Below, in pieces: positions 15,962-22,421 of a stretch of DNA of 22,421 nucleotides (positions within the stretch are counted from its first letter, which is position 1; the number at the start of each line of letters is the position of its first letter). The stretch covers positions 1 through 22,421 of IMG/VR virus record IMGVR_UViG_2724679538_000008; one strand, given 5' to 3'. This DNA is from a virus (Duplodnaviria > Heunggongvirae > Uroviricota > Caudoviricetes). The translations under genes and the position numbers were made by a program. The notes beneath the pieces were generated by a model that was not told the DNA's origin, did no database searches, and saw only the letters and a program-made list of their open reading frames with translations.

Positions 15962-16046
15962 AGTCAGAGATAACAATCAACTAATACTGTTTTGTTGATT
16001 TTTGCTTGTAATTGGCGTTCTGGTCTGAGTTTTGTGGAGTAAGTTG

Positions 16047-16424
16047 ATGCGTGATATTCAGATGGTTCTTGAGCGTTGGGGAGCGTGGGCGGCTAATAAT
16101 CATGAAGATGTGACCTGGTCGTCCATTGCCGCCGGTTTTAAGGGATTAATTCCTTCAAAAGTAAAATCTCGCCCACAATGTTGTGACGATGACGCGATGA
16201 TCATTTGCGGGTGCATGGCCCGTCTGAAAAAGAACAACAGCGATTTGCATGATTTATTGGTGGACTATTATGTCGGCGGCATGACTTTTATGGCGCTTGC
16301 ACGTAAGCATGGGCGATCTGATTGTTGGGTTGGCAGGATGCTCCAGAAAGCTGAGGGCGTAGTGGAGGGTATGCTGATGGTGTTGGATCTCCGATTGGAG
16401 ATGGATGCTGATTGTTCGAAATAA
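16047..16424 (+). CDS. Q: Late-gene antiterminator Q (QuuD/phage 82-type)
   Basis: '[81 protein letters not shown]...' matches DLP12 QuuD-type Q as recalled. GGAG lies 7 nt upstream of the ATG at 16047 (ORF track begins at a TTG at 16032). Confidence 0.85.
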
Positions 16425-16578: not shown

Positions 16579-17103
16579 TTATTGTTTAACCCATAATAAT
16601 TCATTGACATTGAATCCCAACTTTTGAGCGGTTCGCACATAGTCTGCTTTTACTTTATCTGGAATAGTTGGGGTCCTTGCCAGAATCCATAGGTATTCTC
16701 TGTTCGGACCACTGACAAGAGCATACTTATACTCATCATCCAGTTTGATTACATTATAGCCACCATAGAAGGGGCCAAAAAACGAAACCTTCAACGCTGC
16801 AGTTTTAGTATCTCCAGTAAAGTATGCTTTACCTTCGCTCTCGCTCCATTTATTTTTCGTTGGATCGTATCCACGGTTAAGTACACGAATCCCTCCGTCG
16901 TTCCGTTTTCCATAAGTAGCGCTGACCTGTTCCAGACCACGTTCGAACCGGTTCTCGAGGCGAGCTATTTCATACCATTTTCCGAGGTAGCGGTTGGCGT
17001 CAAAATTTGTAATCGGCTGCACACCTTTAGGTGGTGTCGGGGCCTTACATGCTATAAGAGTGAAAGAGAGTGCAATGCCAGTCAACACAGGCCATAACTT
17101 CAT
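16579..17103 (-). CDS. Bacterial lipocalin (Blc-like outer-membrane lipoprotein)
   Basis: 174-aa protein with signal peptide and lipobox 'LIAC'. 'FDANRYLGKWYEIARLENRFERGLEQVSATY...GKAYFTGDTKTAALKVSFFGPFYGGYNVIKLD...YLWILARTPT' closely parallels E. coli Blc. Confidence 0.85.
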   Translation of the reverse strand: MKLWPVLTGIALSFTLIACKAPTPPKGVQPITNFDANRYLGKWYEIARLENRFERGLEQVSATYGKRNDGGIRVLNRGYDPTKNKWSESEGKAYFTGDTKTAALKVSFFGPFYGGYNVIKLDDEYKYALVSGPNREYLWILARTPTIPDKVKADYVRTAQKLGFNVNELLWVKQ

Positions 17104-17295
17104 AATAAATCCTGTACTTTTGATAGTTGAGAGTAAGTATGAAAGATAGATGATTACGACCGATCACTTAAAGAACTTTCATACTATATTAGGAATAGTC
17201 CATAACAGAAAAATTGTCAGTGATGACGCCAGAAAGGCAATTTATTCCGTGCACTACACAGTTTATGTGTTAATGAATTAGTCAAGGGGGAGAAT

Positions 17296-18255
17296 ATGAT
17301 AAAAAAACCTGTGATTGGAATCAGCGGTTGTTTGGCCGGTTCTGCTGTTCGTTTTGATGGTGGTCACAAAAGAGCTGACTTTTTAATGGACAAATTAGTG
17401 GAATGGGTAACATTCAGACCAGTATGTCCAGAAATGGCTATAGGGCTGCCAGTTCCGCGTCCTGCTCTACGTCTTGTGCGCTCGACGCAAGGAAATATAC
17501 GGATGTGTTTCAGCCACGACCAGAATGAGGATGTGACAGAGAGAATGACAGAGTTTAGTCGTTCTTATATGGACAAATTAAAGGATGTATCGGGGTTTGT
17601 GGTTTGTGCTAAATCTCCCAGCTGTGGCATGGAGCGCGTGCGTGTCTATGATGAAAATGGTAATCGAGGTCGTAAAGATGGAGTGGGACTATTTACGAGC
17701 ACTTTGATGGAAAAGTTTTCCTGGCTACCGGTTGAAGAGGATGGGCGATTACATGATCCAGTGCTTCGTGAGAATTTTGTTGAAAGAGTTTTTGCTTTGC
17801 ATGAGCTCAATCATCTTTACAAGGAGAAATTATCAAGAAGAGAGTTATTAGCTTTTCATAGTCGTTATAAGCTTCAGTTATTGGCGCATAGTCAGGCAGG
17901 CTATAAAGATATGGGACCATTTGTGGCTGCAATACACGAGTGGGCGGACCTTGAATCATACTTTGAGGTGTATCGTGATAAGCTGATGGCGATTCTCAGA
18001 AAACCTGCATCACGTAAAAATCACACGAATGTGCTGATGCATATACAGGGGTATTTTAGTAACTACTTAAGTACACGCCAGCGTAAAGAGTTGAGCGAGG
18101 TTATACTTAACTATCGTTCTGGCACATTACCTCTTCTTGCGCCGTTGACTCTGCTGAAGCATTATCTGGGTGAGTATCCTAATGATTACTTGCTTACACA
18201 GAATTACTTCGATCCCTATCCGGACGAACTGGCTCTAAGACTGATGGTAAATTAA
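17296..18255 (+). CDS. DUF523 (TudS/YbgA-like, Cys-rich) + DUF1722 two-domain protein
   Basis: N-terminus 'KPVIGISGCLAGSAVRFDGGHKRADFL...PVCPE...CAKSPSCGME' resembles YbgA/DUF523, which I recall as the TudS 4Fe-4S thiouracil desulfidase family. The C-terminal helical half is consistent with DUF1722. SD 'AAGGGGGAG' upstream. Confidence 0.6.
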   Translation: MIKKPVIGISGCLAGSAVRFDGGHKRADFLMDKLVEWVTFRPVCPEMAIGLPVPRPALRLVRSTQGNIRMCFSHDQNEDVTERMTEFSRSYMDKLKDVSGFVVCAKSPSCGMERVRVYDENGNRGRKDGVGLFTSTLMEKFSWLPVEEDGRLHDPVLRENFVERVFALHELNHLYKEKLSRRELLAFHSRYKLQLLAHSQAGYKDMGPFVAAIHEWADLESYFEVYRDKLMAILRKPASRKNHTNVLMHIQGYFSNYLSTRQRKELSEVILNYRSGTLPLLAPLTLLKHYLGEYPNDYLLTQNYFDPYPDELALRLMVN

Positions 18256-18604
18256 TTGTATGCGATATCATCCAAAAGGATAAGTTCCTGCATGCAGGAT
18301 ATTTACAATCGTAAAAACTACACTATGATACCCAGAGTGTCAGTTTGTATAAAAACTCTGTTTACGCTGAAGAAACCATTGAGATGCAACTTAAAGTTGG
18401 TAAACATGCCAGTCAAAATATAATATTATGATTCCACGCAGCTATATATAATATAACAGATTGGTTTAATAATTTGTCTTTGTGAGTTAAATACATAATT
18501 TTATACTTGTGATGCAATGAGATTTTCCTTATTGTTGAACTGGCGAATATTGATTTTCCACCTATACTTACCTGGTGTAACCCCAATGATATCAGGTGGA
18601 TAAT

Positions 18605-19336
18605 ATGCCATACATATGTTCTATCATTTTGGTGTTGAACTCGTTTGATGCCCGAATTGGTAAAGAAGATATTTTGTTTAAAAAAGGAAGTGCTGTTCTC
18701 ATTGATTACAATTTAAAAGATTTTTTTTCATCAAATATAGATCATGTAATGATCGTAGATGTTGAAGAGAAAACAGTTAATGATTTCTTTAAAAGCAACA
18801 CACTCTCACCTTTTTCTGTAAGAAGGTTTTATCCGGCATACTTGATGGTGGAATGTGAAGATTTTTCATTGTTAAAGAACTTGATTGCATGCTTGAATTG
18901 TGATGGCAGAACTGTGGATTTTGTTAGAAATCAAATATCACTTGCATGTCTTGCTATCTTATCTTCAGAGAAAATAGTGCAAAGTTTTTTATTTGGATGT
19001 CTTAATAGTTTAGGAAGTAAAGTTAAGGCTATTATTCACACGGATATATCTGCAGCATGGAGACTTTGTGATATATCTTCAAGACTGTATCTGAGTGAAA
19101 GTCTGTTAAAAAGAAAATTAAAGCACGAAGGCTTATCATTTAGTAAGTTAATTCTTGAAGAGCGAATGGTGATGGCGGAAAGGTTATTAAGCTACAATTT
19201 ATATTCTGTTGGAAAAGTTGCTAAGATATGCGGTTATGAAAATACGTCATATTTTGTAAGTGTTTTCAGAAGATATTTTGGTGTTCCTCCCCATCAATAT
19301 TCATCAAGATTTTTTTTAGAAAAAGACATGATGTAA
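18605..19336 (+). CDS. AraC-family transcriptional regulator (AppY/GadX-like architecture)
   Basis: C-terminal AraC HTH 'WRLCDISSRLYLSESLLKRKLKHEGLSFSKLILEERMVMAERLLSYNLYSVGKVAKICGYENTSYFVSVFRRYFGVPPHQY'. Very AT-rich gene. 'AGGTGGA' lies upstream of the ATG at 18605. Confidence 0.8.
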   Translation: MPYICSIILVLNSFDARIGKEDILFKKGSAVLIDYNLKDFFSSNIDHVMIVDVEEKTVNDFFKSNTLSPFSVRRFYPAYLMVECEDFSLLKNLIACLNCDGRTVDFVRNQISLACLAILSSEKIVQSFLFGCLNSLGSKVKAIIHTDISAAWRLCDISSRLYLSESLLKRKLKHEGLSFSKLILEERMVMAERLLSYNLYSVGKVAKICGYENTSYFVSVFRRYFGVPPHQYSSRFFLEKDMM

Positions 19337-19524: not shown

Positions 19525-19740
19525 ATGAAATCCATGGATAAGTTAACAACGGGCATTGCCTACGGCACCTCCGCAGGCAGTGCTGGCTACTGGTTTTTAC
19601 AGCTGCTCGATAAAGTCACGCCCTCACAGTGGGCAGCAATAGGTGTGCTGGGTAGCTTGGTATTTGGCCTGCTGACGTACCTGACAAACCTTTATTTCAA
19701 GATTAAAGAAGATAAGCGCAAGGCTGCGAGAGGTGAATAA
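19525..19740 (+). CDS. S: Class II holin, phage 21 S-type pinholin (dual start)
   Basis: 71-aa protein '[71 protein letters not shown]' with two TMDs and the Met1-Lys2-Ser3-Met4 dual-start motif. GGAGGTGAGG SD. Confidence 0.9.
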
Positions 19741-20237
19741 TGCCTCCATCATTACGAAAAGCCGTTGCTGCTGCTATTGGTGGCGGAGCAATTGCTATAG
19801 CATCAGTGTTAATCACTGGCCCAAGTGGTAACGATGGTCTGGAAGGTGTCAGCTACATACCATACAAAGATATTGTTGGTGTATGGACTGTATGTCACGG
19901 GCATACAGGAAAAGACATCATGCTCGGTAAAACGTATACCAAAGCAGAATGCAAAGCCCTCCTGAATAAAGACCTTGCCACTGTCGCCAGACAAATTAAC
20001 CCGTACATCAAAGTCGATATACCGGAAACAACGCGCGGCGCTCTTTACTCGTTCGTCTACAACGTGGGTGCTGGCAATTTCAGAACATCGACGCTTCTTC
20101 GCAAAATAAACCAGGGTGATATCAAAGGCGCATGTGATCAGCTACGGCGCTGGACATACGCTGGCGGTAAGCAATGGAAAGGTCTCATGACTCGTCGTGA
20201 GATTGAGCGTGAAATCTGTTTGTGGGGTCAGCAATGA
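19740..20237 (+). CDS. R: SAR endolysin (phage 21 R-type lysozyme)
   Basis: N-terminal Gly/Ala-rich signal-anchor-release segment '[20 protein letters not shown]' followed by a lysozyme domain ('...[26 protein letters not shown]...'). Start overlaps the holin stop (TAATG). Confidence 0.9.
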
Positions 20238-20692
20238 ACAGAGTAACCGCGATTATCTCCGCTCTGGTTATCTGCATCATCGTCTGCCTGTCATGGGCTG
20301 TTAATCATTACCGTGATAACGCAATCGCCTACAAAGAGCAGCGCGATAACAAGGCCAGTGAACTGGAGAAGGCGAACGCCACCATCGCTGACATGCGGAA
20401 GCGTCAACGTGATGTAGCAGAACTCGACGCAAGATACACAAAGGAGCTTGCTGATGCTAACGCGACTATCGAAAGTCTCCGTGCTGATGTTTCTGCTGGG
20501 CGTAAGCGCCTGCAAGTCGCCGCCACCTGTGCAAAGTCAACGACCGGAGCCAGCGGCATGGGCGATGGAGAAAGCCCAAGACTTACAGCAGATGCTGAAC
20601 TCAATTATTACCGTCTACGAAGTGGAATCGACAGGATAACCGCGCAGGTTAACTACCTGCAGGAGTACATTAGGACGCAGTGCTTAAAATAA
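20234..20692 (+). CDS. Rz: Rz inner-membrane spanin (i-spanin)
   Basis: ATG overlapping the R stop (ATGA). N-terminal TMD '[20 protein letters not shown]' then a coiled-coil periplasmic domain. Contains an embedded +1-frame lipoprotein ORF. Confidence 0.85.
20454..20639 (+). CDS. Rz1: Rz1 outer-membrane lipoprotein spanin (o-spanin), embedded in Rz in the +1 frame
   Basis: '[33 protein letters not shown]...' has a signal peptide, lipobox VSAC and a Pro-rich mature part. AAGGAG lies 7 nt upstream of the ATG. Lies entirely within Rz. Confidence 0.75.
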
Positions 20693-20734
20693 TTTTAATT
20701 GCACTGAAATTTAACAAGTGACTTTCAGGAAAAT

Positions 20735-20758
20735 GCCTCGCAGAAGCGGGGCTTTTTT
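20735..20758 (+). terminator. Rho-independent terminator after the lysis cassette
   Basis: GCCUCGC-agaa-GCGGGGC (7-bp stem with one G-U) followed by UUUUUUAU, about 45 nt after the Rz stop. Confidence 0.7.
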
Positions 20759-20901
20759 ATGTCCGCAGTAAACGCGCATCTCACGCGCATATTAACGAGA
20801 GCCTTTCAGTAAGCGGGCCTGAGAATTGCCGTTATAGGTGGCGACCTCTCTCGGGCGGCTTTTCTGTGAGACAGGCTCACTTTCTAAAAGGTAAAGACGC
20901 T

Positions 20902-21390
20902 ATGAACCAATTAGAAGAAAAGCTTCAAAGAATGATTTCCTTATACAAGGAAGATAACTGCCAAAAAGTTCCTGAAAACATCGCAGAGTTAATGGAATTG
21001 GCAAGTGAATTTTCTGGCATGCTTAAGTCGTCAGATGTTCGGTCAGCGTTCTTTGTTGAAATGCTGATGCACGGCGGACTTATGGCAACAATGAGACGTG
21101 TAATGGAAGACCAGAGAAAAGAACCTCCTCAGGTATACGTTTTGTCATCGAAGAAAACTGGGCTAACCAAAATTGGGTATTCATCCAACATTCCACAACG
21201 CATCAAATCGCTTGGCAACTCTGGACCAGACTGTTTGAAGCTTGAGTGCCTGATCCCTGGTGGAAGAGAAACTGAAAACATGCTTCATCGCAAATTTGCC
21301 GCAAAGAGAAAGCACGGTGAATGGTTCGCCCTGTCCAAGGATGACATTGAGGGGTTGAAATCTGTAGCGCTTACTTCTGATGGCTATTAA
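20902..21390 (+). CDS. T5orf172-like (GIY-YIG-related) domain protein with uncharacterised N-terminal region
   Basis: C-terminal half 'VYVLSSKKTGLTKIGYSSNIPQRIKSLGNSGPDCLKLECLIPGGRETENMLHRKFAAKRKHGEWFALSKDDIEGL' fits the T5orf172 pattern (VY.L......KIG.S.N...R...L.....L.L.........E..LH..F...R..GEWF.L). ATG at 20902 is preceded by AAAGG (ORF track begins at a GTG at 20866). Confidence 0.6.
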   Translation: MNQLEEKLQRMISLYKEDNCQKVPENIAELMELASEFSGMLKSSDVRSAFFVEMLMHGGLMATMRRVMEDQRKEPPQVYVLSSKKTGLTKIGYSSNIPQRIKSLGNSGPDCLKLECLIPGGRETENMLHRKFAAKRKHGEWFALSKDDIEGLKSVALTSDGY

Positions 21391-22010
21391 TGCTTGTTTA
21401 GAGCAATTTTCATAACAGCTCTTCATTACAAAGCCCATCTACGGGTGGGCTTGATAATGAAACCGGAATTTATTCTGGGCCACCAGTTAACGGCAGTACC
21501 ACGAAACAACCCAAGCCAGTAAGTGGGGAAATAACACCGGCAGCCACTGAAAGATAAACCTCCTGCCTTATGGCAAAAAAGATTCTTTGTGGTGGCGGAC
21601 TGATGGAAAGACATCCTAATTTCAGCCAAACATTGAAGGAGTTGTTATGTCAGCAGAAGGTTTCAATAACCCATCAAAATTCCGGGATGAGTGGGATAGC
21701 AGCGTAAAGAGTAAGTGATGCCATCACAAAAGCCATTCCCTACAGAGTGGCTTTGATAATGGCTTATACCCTACACGGGATAACTTAACTGATATCCCTT
21801 TTAAAGGATAAAGGTATTCAAGCCTGACACATCATGCGCTGTATCGTCGCCGTATTCCCGTATTAACAGAGACCGTAGCCCGACGGGGAACTCCTTCTGC
21901 GCGAGTGTGCGGGAATAATCAAAAACGATGCACACCGGGGTTACCGGGTACACATATTTCATCATGCCAGCGAGTCCGGTTCTGGCACGGAAGAAACCGG
22001 ACGTTATGAT

Positions 22011-22421
22011 TTAGTGCGGAAATATTTGTGTAGTGTTCTGAATGTTCTCAGTAAAGAGTAATGAATTATCAAAGGTATAGTAATATCTTTTTTGTTCGTG
22101 GATATTTGTAACCCACCGAAAAACTCCTGCTTTAGCAAGGTTTCTTCTGTATTCCTGAAATGTGATCTCTCTGGATTTCAGCTTATTAGAGGTCGTTTCT
22201 ATAAGATGCCTATCCTTTGAAAATTTGACAGACACAATGTTTTTTAGGCCCTTTAATAACACTGTATTATCATTTTTTAATACAATATGAACATTCTCTG
22301 TGGCTAAATAGTAAATGTAATGTGAGACATTGTGACGTTTTAGCTCAGAATAAAACCATTGATAGTTTAAATCGTTTCGAACTTTATCAAATATTTGTTT
22401 AAAAATGACTACCTGATCCAT
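22011..22421 (-). CDS. Hypothetical AT-rich protein (136 aa), possibly DLP12 YbcV-like
   Basis: Complete ORF whose ATG is at the window edge; very AT-rich. Size, orientation and position after the lysis genes resemble DLP12 ybcV; this is a memory-based call that is not verifiable here. Confidence 0.45.

Follow-up and report, generated by a model that had tools for sequence, protein, structure and literature searches.

The gene at nucleotides 20902 to 21390 of the window, the 22,421-nucleotide stretch of phage DNA that was analyzed, encodes a 162-amino acid protein whose C-terminal half belongs to the T5orf172/MUG113 branch of the GIY-YIG family. Judged from its flanks, the gene is an allele of a late-operon "rha slot", the rha locus of the older literature, in which unrelated genes replace one another between conserved sequences. 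We hold with about even confidence that it specifies an active, late-expressed, nonessential accessory endonuclease of the lambdoid late operon.

Gene neighborhood and homologues

The open reading frame as listed runs from 20866 to 21390 on the plus strand, begins with GTG and encodes 174 amino acids, and an in-frame ATG at 20902 yields the 162-amino acid version. The ATG is favored as the start because homology to phages carrying other genes at this site ends at 20906, after the sequence ATGAA. This start agrees exactly with the coordinates given in a preliminary description of the window. Only one substantial plus-strand open reading frame is present in the region. The surrounding features are as follows.

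16032-16424, plus strand: Q antiterminator (Pfam)
16579-17103, minus strand: lipocalin (Pfam)
17296-18255, plus strand: YbgA-like protein (2-thiouracil desulfurase/DUF1722; Pfam)
18596-19336, plus strand: AraC-type regulator (Pfam)
19525-19740, plus strand: holin (Pfam)
19740-20237, plus strand: lysozyme (Pfam)
20222-20692, plus strand: Rz i-spanin, the final gene of the lysis cassette (Pfam Phage_lysis, 1.5e-40; counterparts annotated in HK106, K-12 DLP12 and P22)
20448-20639, plus strand: probable Rz1 o-spanin, embedded in Rz in the +1 frame (open reading frame list; lipobox-like LLGVSAC)
20735-20758, plus strand: intrinsic-terminator-like hairpin GCCTCGCAGAAGCGGGGC followed by TTTTTT, just past Rz (terminator scan; the hairpin itself spans 20735-20752)
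20902-21390, plus strand: coding sequence of the T5orf172/MUG113 protein, 162 amino acids, stop codon included (open reading frame list and Pfam)
22011-22421, minus strand: DUF1398 (ybcV-like) gene, downstream (Pfam)

The gene begins 209 nucleotides past the Rz stop codon (20692), and the hairpin with its T-run lies in this interval, as expected from the earlier placement of the gene after an Rz terminator. Its GC content is 0.40 to 0.46, compared with 0.47 to 0.54 for the lysis genes.

Full-length homologues of 160 to 163 amino acids are found in Escherichia, Salmonella and Klebsiella prophages, with identities ranging from 98% down to 35%. The same gene is carried by phage Chlobot and by HK106, where the product (gp64) is 98% identical in amino acid sequence and is encoded after Rz and an annotated rho-independent terminator. 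Salmonella phage epsilon34 encodes a 29% identical protein, gp68, in the same place. RefSeq names the homologues "GIY-YIG nuclease family protein", and the full region is present in 80 of 5426 complete E. coli genomes. In eight other loci, the nucleotide identity of the coding sequence is 99 to 100%. The preliminary description had allowed that the gene might be a degraded fragment of a larger one, and this is ruled out by the length of the full-length homologues, all of which have 160 to 163 residues. Shorter database entries (53-111 amino acids) are instead broken copies of the same gene, which fits a dispensable gene that is decaying in some prophages. Estimates of pN/pS (0.18-0.41) derive from only four to five differences, too few to be used. 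No conserved partner gene lies beside the T5orf172 gene in the neighborhoods compared. In Klebsiella, the T5orf172 gene overlaps the 5′ end of a gene whose product is an Endonuclease_NS protein with a signal peptide.

The nuclease domain and the acidic N-terminal domain

The protein is composed of two domains, and the corresponding segments of the gene are listed here.

20902-21129, plus strand: N-terminal domain, residues 1-76, a family-specific acidic three-helix bundle
21130-21369, plus strand: C-terminal T5orf172/MUG113 domain of the GIY-YIG fold, residues 77-156
21136-21138, 21199-21201 and 21274-21276, plus strand: putative catalytic codons for Tyr79, Arg100 and Glu125, respectively

Membership in a Pfam family is defined by a profile HMM score above a curated gathering threshold, and the C-terminal domain exceeds this threshold for both MUG113 (PF13455; E = 5.5e-15, 56.1 bits with a cut-off of 22.3, residues 90-151) and T5orf172 (PF10544; E = 1.8e-10, 41.6 bits with a cut-off of 20, residues 78-150). 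The assignment of the last 80 or so residues to this domain, initially proposed from the letters of the sequence, is thereby borne out by profile search. The epsilon34 gp68 protein and the proteins P0013 and P0016 likewise score above the T5orf172/MUG113 thresholds. The match to the generic GIY-YIG model (PF01541) is below threshold, at 12.5 bits against a cut-off of 22.6 (E = 0.19), and covers only residues 77 to 104. Membership in the GIY-YIG family therefore rests on kinship with T5orf172/MUG113, on the predicted fold and on conserved residues; T5orf172 has been described as a GIY-YIG subfamily (PMC10448857). Among phage protein families, PHROG 4284, for which no function is listed, matches the full length of the 162-amino acid protein (9.5e-88), and the 434-position profile of PHROG 8130 matches the nuclease domain alone. 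NCBIfam holds no model for the protein.

An AlphaFold2 model computed from the family alignment (mean pLDDT 87) contains a three-helix bundle followed by a domain with the order beta-beta-alpha-beta-alpha-beta-alpha, and in this model the C-terminal 80 residues have the GIY-YIG alpha/beta fold. Structure searches with the complete model returned mainly generic helical bundles or no match, and Foldseek against the PDB returned no match at E ≤ 0.001. The family profile compared with PDB sequences gave chance-level matches only (E about 1), and no solved structure is detectable in this way. A word-indexed homologue search with the C-terminal domain returned only fragments of the same gene.

A characterized relative is nonetheless recognizable in BLASTP, which aligns the nuclease domain with that of the ICP1 protein Odn (E = 7e-5). 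In this alignment Y79 is superposed on Y127 of Odn, K90-I-G on K-V-G, R100 on the conserved Arg and E125 on E180, a correspondence that, together with the fold, supports the GIY-YIG relationship suggested earlier. Odn (ICP1 gp88), the single T5orf172 protein for which DNA cleavage has been demonstrated, cuts DNA in vitro, and its E180A substitution abolishes cleavage both in vitro and in vivo (PMC8263062). The preliminary statement that T5orf172 domains have no established function is thus outdated, given the activity of Odn (PMC8263062) and the treatment of ICP1 genes of this family as homing endonucleases (PMC10448857).

Residues Y79, K90, G92, R100, E125 and H129, along with an HGEWF motif, do not vary among family members of as little as 29% identity, including epsilon34 gp68. 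As aligned, Tyr79, Arg100 and Glu125 are retained and correspond to the catalytic residues of characterized relatives. The fact that these active-site residues are invariant, and that only four positions of the N-terminal domain are invariant across the family, argues that catalysis has been maintained. Lys90 stands in place of the second Tyr of the canonical YIG motif. This substitution distinguishes the protein from the GIY-YIG nucleases of solved structure (SLX1, the I-TevI catalytic domain, the UvrC N-terminal domain, Eco29kI and PD-T4-3), as do its unrelated partner domain, its score below the Pfam GIY-YIG threshold and its lack of a PDB sequence match.

The preliminary description was correct that a helical region precedes the nuclease domain, and helices at residues 3 to 20, 23 to 43 and 49 to 71 are predicted by AlphaFold2. 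This region comprises about 76 amino acids, however, rather than the 95 or so first estimated. It is acidic in every family member (pI 4.6-6.2), whereas the C-terminal domain is basic in every member (pI 9.4-9.8). The N-terminal domain has no Pfam match and no CxxC or zinc-finger cysteine motif. When its profile was compared with 1.84 billion representative proteins, the six matches obtained were all members or fragments of the same family, and no other architectures were seen. By the criteria of Pfam matches, cysteine motifs and pI, no sequence-specific DNA-binding module was found joined to the nuclease. Because the domain is acidic, has neither a Pfam match nor cysteine motifs and does not resemble the DNA-binding domains of other T5orf172 genes, we infer that it serves as an oligomerization or protein-partner module rather than a DNA-recognition module. 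We found no description of this family-specific acidic domain in the literature searched.

Exchange of genes between the spanin and packaging genes

The coding sequence is bracketed by segments whose boundaries are defined by blastn comparison with other phages.

20693-20901, plus strand: conserved noncoding leader region that precedes whichever gene occupies the slot (blastn boundaries; alignments with HK106, HK620, phi80, SE1, epsilon34 and an E. coli prophage)
21391-21423, plus strand: short cassette-specific tail (blastn boundaries and junction sequences)
21424-21615, plus strand: conserved downstream flank common to HK620, SE1, phage L, Huey, P22 and epsilon34 (91-97% identity)

In comparisons with HK620 and SE1, the homologous stretch runs on from the Rz terminator, spans the leader and ends at 20906, four bases past the ATG. 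Beyond the gene, phages with other occupants become homologous again at 21414 to 21424. The downstream flank includes a hairpin at about 21430 to 21452 and the start of a short open reading frame at 21570, and in the epsilon34 record the corresponding sequence is noted to resemble the N terminus of ST64T orf118. The arrangement was recovered from 238 phage records with a query consisting of the flanks alone. The contents of the slot in well-known phages are listed below.

HK620: a KilA-N plus ORF11CD3 protein (HkbK) and hkbL
SE1: a KilA-N protein
phi80: rha, behind the same leader
P22: rha (Phage_pRha plus ORF11CD3), behind a diverged leader
epsilon34: a second type of T5orf172 gene, with the same leader and ATGAA
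Huey: a Tad2-like protein; a gene of the Gp49/66 family occupies a second junction, 200 nucleotides downstream
Phage L: 33 bp between Rz and the downstream flank, with the last bases of hkbL retained

Judging from these alignments, the occupants (Rha, KilA-N and Tad2-like proteins and two types of T5orf172 protein) are interchangeable while the flanks are conserved. Indeed, about 170 nucleotides of leader and the ATGAA start that precede the T5orf172 gene also precede the Rha gene of phi80 and the KilA-N genes of HK620 and SE1, with the same upstream terminator, and the downstream flank is held in common with the P22-like phages (HK620, SE1 and P22). In the literature searched, we found no account of unrelated genes that share one leader precisely up to the start codon. 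The Rha and KilA-N occupants are also accessory genes and fall in a similar size class (165-201 amino acids). Their products are unrelated to the T5orf172 protein, carrying Phage_pRha or KilA-N plus ORF11CD3 and no nuclease domain. That occupants vary among relatives, and that Rz and the downstream flank lie only 33 bp apart in phage L, shows the gene inserted between sequences that are adjacent in relatives. The retained hkbL end indicates that the short allele of phage L is a deletion derivative rather than a virgin site.

The gene had originally been placed in the position that lambda uses for bor. This is accurate for the interval, since borD fills the space between rzpD and ybcV in DLP12, the closest K-12 counterpart prophage. 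Homology to DLP12 breaks inside Rz (20503), however, and restarts only at 21835. Moreover, bor and borD encode a lipoprotein on the opposite strand and have no junctions in common with the T5orf172 cassette. By this comparison, borD and the T5orf172 gene share an interval, not a cassette.

The T5orf172 gene occurs in phages of quite different make-up. The exact protein is encoded in prophages with a Nu1/GpA-type terminase, in others with a DUF1441-type small terminase and in P22-like prophages of two kinds, one with an Sf6-type and one with a gp3-type terminase, and the 98% identical copy resides in the HK97-like phage HK106. Nucleotide identity of the open reading frame is 100% in loci L011 to L018, a value biased by the retrieval of these loci through the exact protein, such that weight is carried by the absence of synonymous changes and by the independently found loci L001 to L003. 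Identity is 99.0 to 99.2% in HK106, Chlobot and an E. coli prophage. At the same loci, Rz and the leader are each 85 to 100% identical. Thus, a nearly unchanged open reading frame is found in at least four phage backbones with more divergent flanks, and the lack of synonymous change along with near-identity in independently found loci indicates recent transfer between backbones. Distant members of the family keep the position after lysis and before packaging genes, even beside an unrelated lysis cassette. One of them, P0016, lies among tail and structural genes.

This pattern of carriage bears on a possible alternative, that the protein is a free-standing homing endonuclease making a site-specific break in phages with a different allele or none, the repair of which copies the open reading frame and its flank. 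We consider this unlikely, although less so than the other competing explanations. T5orf172 genes of ICP1 and other phages have been read as homing genes that sit at recombination boundaries and, in 35% of neighborhoods, near terminase (PMC10448857). The gene described here directly precedes the packaging genes in every background, its carriage is polymorphic between conserved flanks, its near-identity across four backbones exceeds that of those flanks, and P0016 lies between structural genes, all of which would be compatible with homing. The two sets of genes thus resemble each other in nuclease family, exchange boundaries and proximity to terminase. They differ in that 87% of the surveyed phage T5orf172 homing genes bear zinc-finger DNA-binding repeats of the CapR, DUF723 or DUF4397 type (Barth et al. 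2023; PMC10448857), whereas the 162-amino acid protein has none and carries an acidic extra domain instead. The homing examples in ICP1, T5-like and other phages also come mostly from lytic lineages. Furthermore, the Rha and KilA-N alleles swap with equal precision and have no nuclease. Mobility of the gene therefore requires no nuclease, as far as can be judged from these occupants, which appear to move as freely. Finally, the alternative alleles consist of other genes, not of empty sites, and the one seemingly empty allele, in phage L, is the deletion derivative that retains the 3′ end of hkbL.

Probable late expression and proposed function

Several observations on the leader suggest how the gene is expressed. 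The records of HK106, phi80 and epsilon34 label the terminator-like element past Rz a rho-independent terminator. A second hairpin followed by TTTTCT lies just before the ribosome-binding region. A consensus scan revealed two promoter sites in the whole 3-kb region, neither of them between 20693 and 20901, and thus no sigma-70-like promoter in the leader, although weak or non-sigma-70 sites could escape such a scan. The rha gene of P22 has been described as part of the late operon (PMC4936722). According to the same paper and a note in the phi80 record, Rha prevents phage growth in hosts defective in IHF, so that rha is deleterious under some conditions. Taken together, the lack of a promoter match, the upstream terminator or terminators, the example of rha and the presence of a Q gene in the window point to late, antiterminated transcription. 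The T5orf172 gene is probably a Q-dependent late gene and not a bor-like moron, a view of its expression that derives from the consensus scan and from synteny.

Since rha is said to be IHF-regulated, IHF consensus sites were also sought; the window contains no more of them than expected by chance, and the leader contains none. We likewise make no claim that the leader, despite its striking conservation, is a structured cis-regulatory RNA. Its single-sequence fold is not unusual (z = -1.5), and the covariation term from RNAalifold was about 0 both for six leaders and for seven, among them diverged versions from Klebsiella and elsewhere. A comparison of nucleotides 20600 to 22100 with Rfam gave chance-level matches only.

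The bor gene is expressed in lysogens. By analogy, the T5orf172 gene could be a defense or superinfection-exclusion moron, expressed from the prophage to degrade incoming phage DNA in the lysogen, an explanation that we regard as improbable. It has in its favor the shared interval with the lysogen-expressed bor and borD genes of lambda and DLP12 and a GC content slightly lower than that of the lysis genes. A search of PADLOC-DB 2.0 yielded as its sole match the candidate system PDC-S57, which aligns weakly over the nuclease domain (E = 7e-6, 23.8 bits). Such a gene would be expected to have a promoter of its own, but one or two terminator-like hairpins directly precede the open reading frame and no promoter-like site does. 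Its leader is that of rha, the P22 version of which has been described as a late-operon gene (PMC4936722), and it lies on the late-operon strand, unlike bor. The gene is also kept in the free-living phages HK106, Chlobot and epsilon34, and the lysogen would be put at risk by an unregulated nuclease that lacks a partner immunity gene.

Our preferred explanation, that of an accessory endonuclease produced late, would operate as follows. The protein would cut DNA in a metal-dependent manner, as Odn and I-TevI do. Its gene would be transcribed only by Q-modified RNA polymerase that passes the post-Rz terminator or terminators, that is, during late lytic growth, when the nuclease could no longer harm the lysogen. 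The acidic N-terminal bundle would not bind DNA but would oligomerize or bind a partner that controls where and when the basic nuclease acts. More speculatively, the target might be competing DNA in the same cell, such as that of related phages, satellites or alleles lacking the gene, and cleavage might also stimulate recombination that spreads the gene. Points that count against this explanation include the subthreshold score with PF01541, the Lys in place of the second Tyr, the failure to find a DNA-recognition domain and the equal mobility of occupants that have no nuclease domain.

Odn is the closest model for such a protein. Both are phage-borne accessory genes (PMC8263062), and both have a C-terminal T5orf172 domain, with the specificity module at the N terminus and the nuclease at the C terminus. 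The N-terminal domain of Odn, in contrast, is a RepA_N-like DNA-binding domain that directs the protein to a satellite origin (PMC8263062). Odn is also larger (226 amino acids) and has its own annotated promoter in a lytic phage, whereas the 162-amino acid protein is encoded in the late operon of temperate phages.

A different role would follow if the T5orf172 domain served only as a DNA-binding fold, in which case the protein would act in DNA binding or regulation without catalytic activity, as the functional counterpart of the Rha and KilA-N proteins whose place it takes. Other occupants of the slot are predicted DNA-binding regulators (P22 Rha, HkbK of HK620 and the KilA-N protein of SE1), the T5orf172 domain was first noted beside Bro-N and KilA-N and predicted to bind DNA (bioRxiv 10.1101/2020.11.28.402263), and CapR, which is related to T5orf172 homing genes, is now a domesticated repressor (bioRxiv 10.1101/2020.11.28.402263; PMC10448857). 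The counterpart of CapR in those proteins, however, is the DNA-binding domain and not the T5orf172 domain (PMC10448857). In addition, the 162-amino acid protein lacks the ORF11CD3 domain common to Rha and HkbK, and its putative catalytic Tyr, Arg and Glu are held constant while the rest of the sequence drifts, a pattern one would not expect of dispensable catalysis. We therefore think a noncatalytic role doubtful.

Equally doubtful in our estimation is a more elaborate proposal, in which the leader, comprising the terminator or terminators, the ribosome-binding region and ATGAA, would constitute a late-operon "expression socket" into which unrelated, potentially toxic open reading frames (those for KilA-N, Rha and the two T5orf172 types) are swapped precisely at the start codon. 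The T5orf172 occupant would then be an Odn-like weapon, with an N-terminal domain that recognizes a protein made by a rival phage or by a satellite, for example a PICI or an element of P4 type, and so directs the nuclease to the DNA of that rival late in infection.

If the protein is an active nuclease, as we prefer, it would represent a second and very compact T5orf172 architecture, in which a protein-interaction bundle takes the place of the DNA-binding domain. The gene is present in tractable, well-studied coliphages (HK106 and epsilon34), such that its target could then be found by simple crosses. The slot itself offers a natural example of start-codon-precise cassette exchange and a place to seek genes for conflict between phages or between phages and defense systems. 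Current understanding is not overturned by these results, given that the gene is already annotated as GIY-YIG and that the nuclease function of its domain has been shown elsewhere. The variability of the slot is likewise already visible in published genomes, and the gene is already present in sequenced model phages.

Sequences flanking the slot

The interchangeable genes found between Rz and the packaging genes (the slot) are flanked in the window by segments that recur among phages.

20693-20906: leader of about 170 to 210 nt, ending with ATGAA (included)
21424-21615 and 21745-21812: downstream block, 91 to 98% identical among phages of several types
about 21430-21452: hairpin in the downstream block
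from 21570: beginning of a short ORF in the downstream block, whose product begins MAKKILCGGGLMERH
21616-21744: 129-bp segment
21647-21718: 23-codon ORF in the 129-bp segment, product MSAEGFNNPSKFRDEWDSSVKSK

The ORFs that follow the common leader are of unrelated kinds: Rha, KilA-N, or either of two T5orf172 types. The leader itself is 85 to 100% conserved and is carried by HK106, HK620, phi80, SE1, epsilon34, and E. coli; a diverged version is present in Klebsiella prophages. Two terminator-like hairpins lie within the leader, and covariation support for RNA structure in this region was not found with RNAalifold among six and then seven leaders.

The downstream block carries no annotation in the HK620 record; in the epsilon34 record, the annotation of its counterpart notes a resemblance to the ST64T orf118 N-terminus. 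The second mosaic junction falls 46 nt inside the short ORF that starts at 21570. The 129-bp segment found there is present in six DLP12-like loci that encode the same protein as the window (L011 to L015 and L018) and is missing from HK106, HK620, and P22-like loci. Its 23-codon ORF is preceded by a strong AAGGAG ribosome-binding site. The corresponding junction is occupied by the unrelated orf25 in P22 and by a Gp49/66-family gene in phage Huey.

History of the slot

Only 33 bp separate Rz from the downstream flank in Salmonella phage L cII-101 (1694-1728 of the compared locus). This seemingly empty slot retains the final bases of hkbL (GCAAAAGCGAAGTAG) and is thus a deletion product of an HK620-type cassette. 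The ORF11CD3 C-terminal domain is common to the KilA-N protein of HK620 (hkbK) and to P22 Rha, wherein it follows different N-terminal DNA-binding domains. The history of the slot therefore includes domain shuffling in addition to whole-gene replacement.

Putative counter-defence and nuclease genes, and cargo genes

Escherichia phage Huey, L007 1415-1915: Tad2-like (Thoeris anti-defence 2) domain protein, slot occupant
Escherichia phage Huey, L007 2150-2530: Phage_gp49_66 protein, neighbouring junction
Klebsiella variicola prophage, L026 5001-6187: P0009 gene and Endonuclease_NS gene
Window 16579-19336: prophage cargo between the Q and holin genes

Both Huey proteins are labeled “anti-CRISPR protein” in the phage record, and their presence suggests that the locus also collects counter-defence genes. 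In the Klebsiella prophage, the gene for P0009, a 74%-identical homologue of the window protein, overlaps the start of the Endonuclease_NS gene by 4 nt. The latter encodes a 232-aa protein with a signal-peptide-like sequence at its N-terminus, and these two nuclease genes after the lysis cassette may be translationally coupled.

The Q-holin cargo comprises genes for a lipocalin (- strand), a YbgA-like 2-thiouracil-desulfurase/DUF1722 protein, and an AraC-type regulator; the porin gene nmpC takes its place in K-12 DLP12 and in L011.
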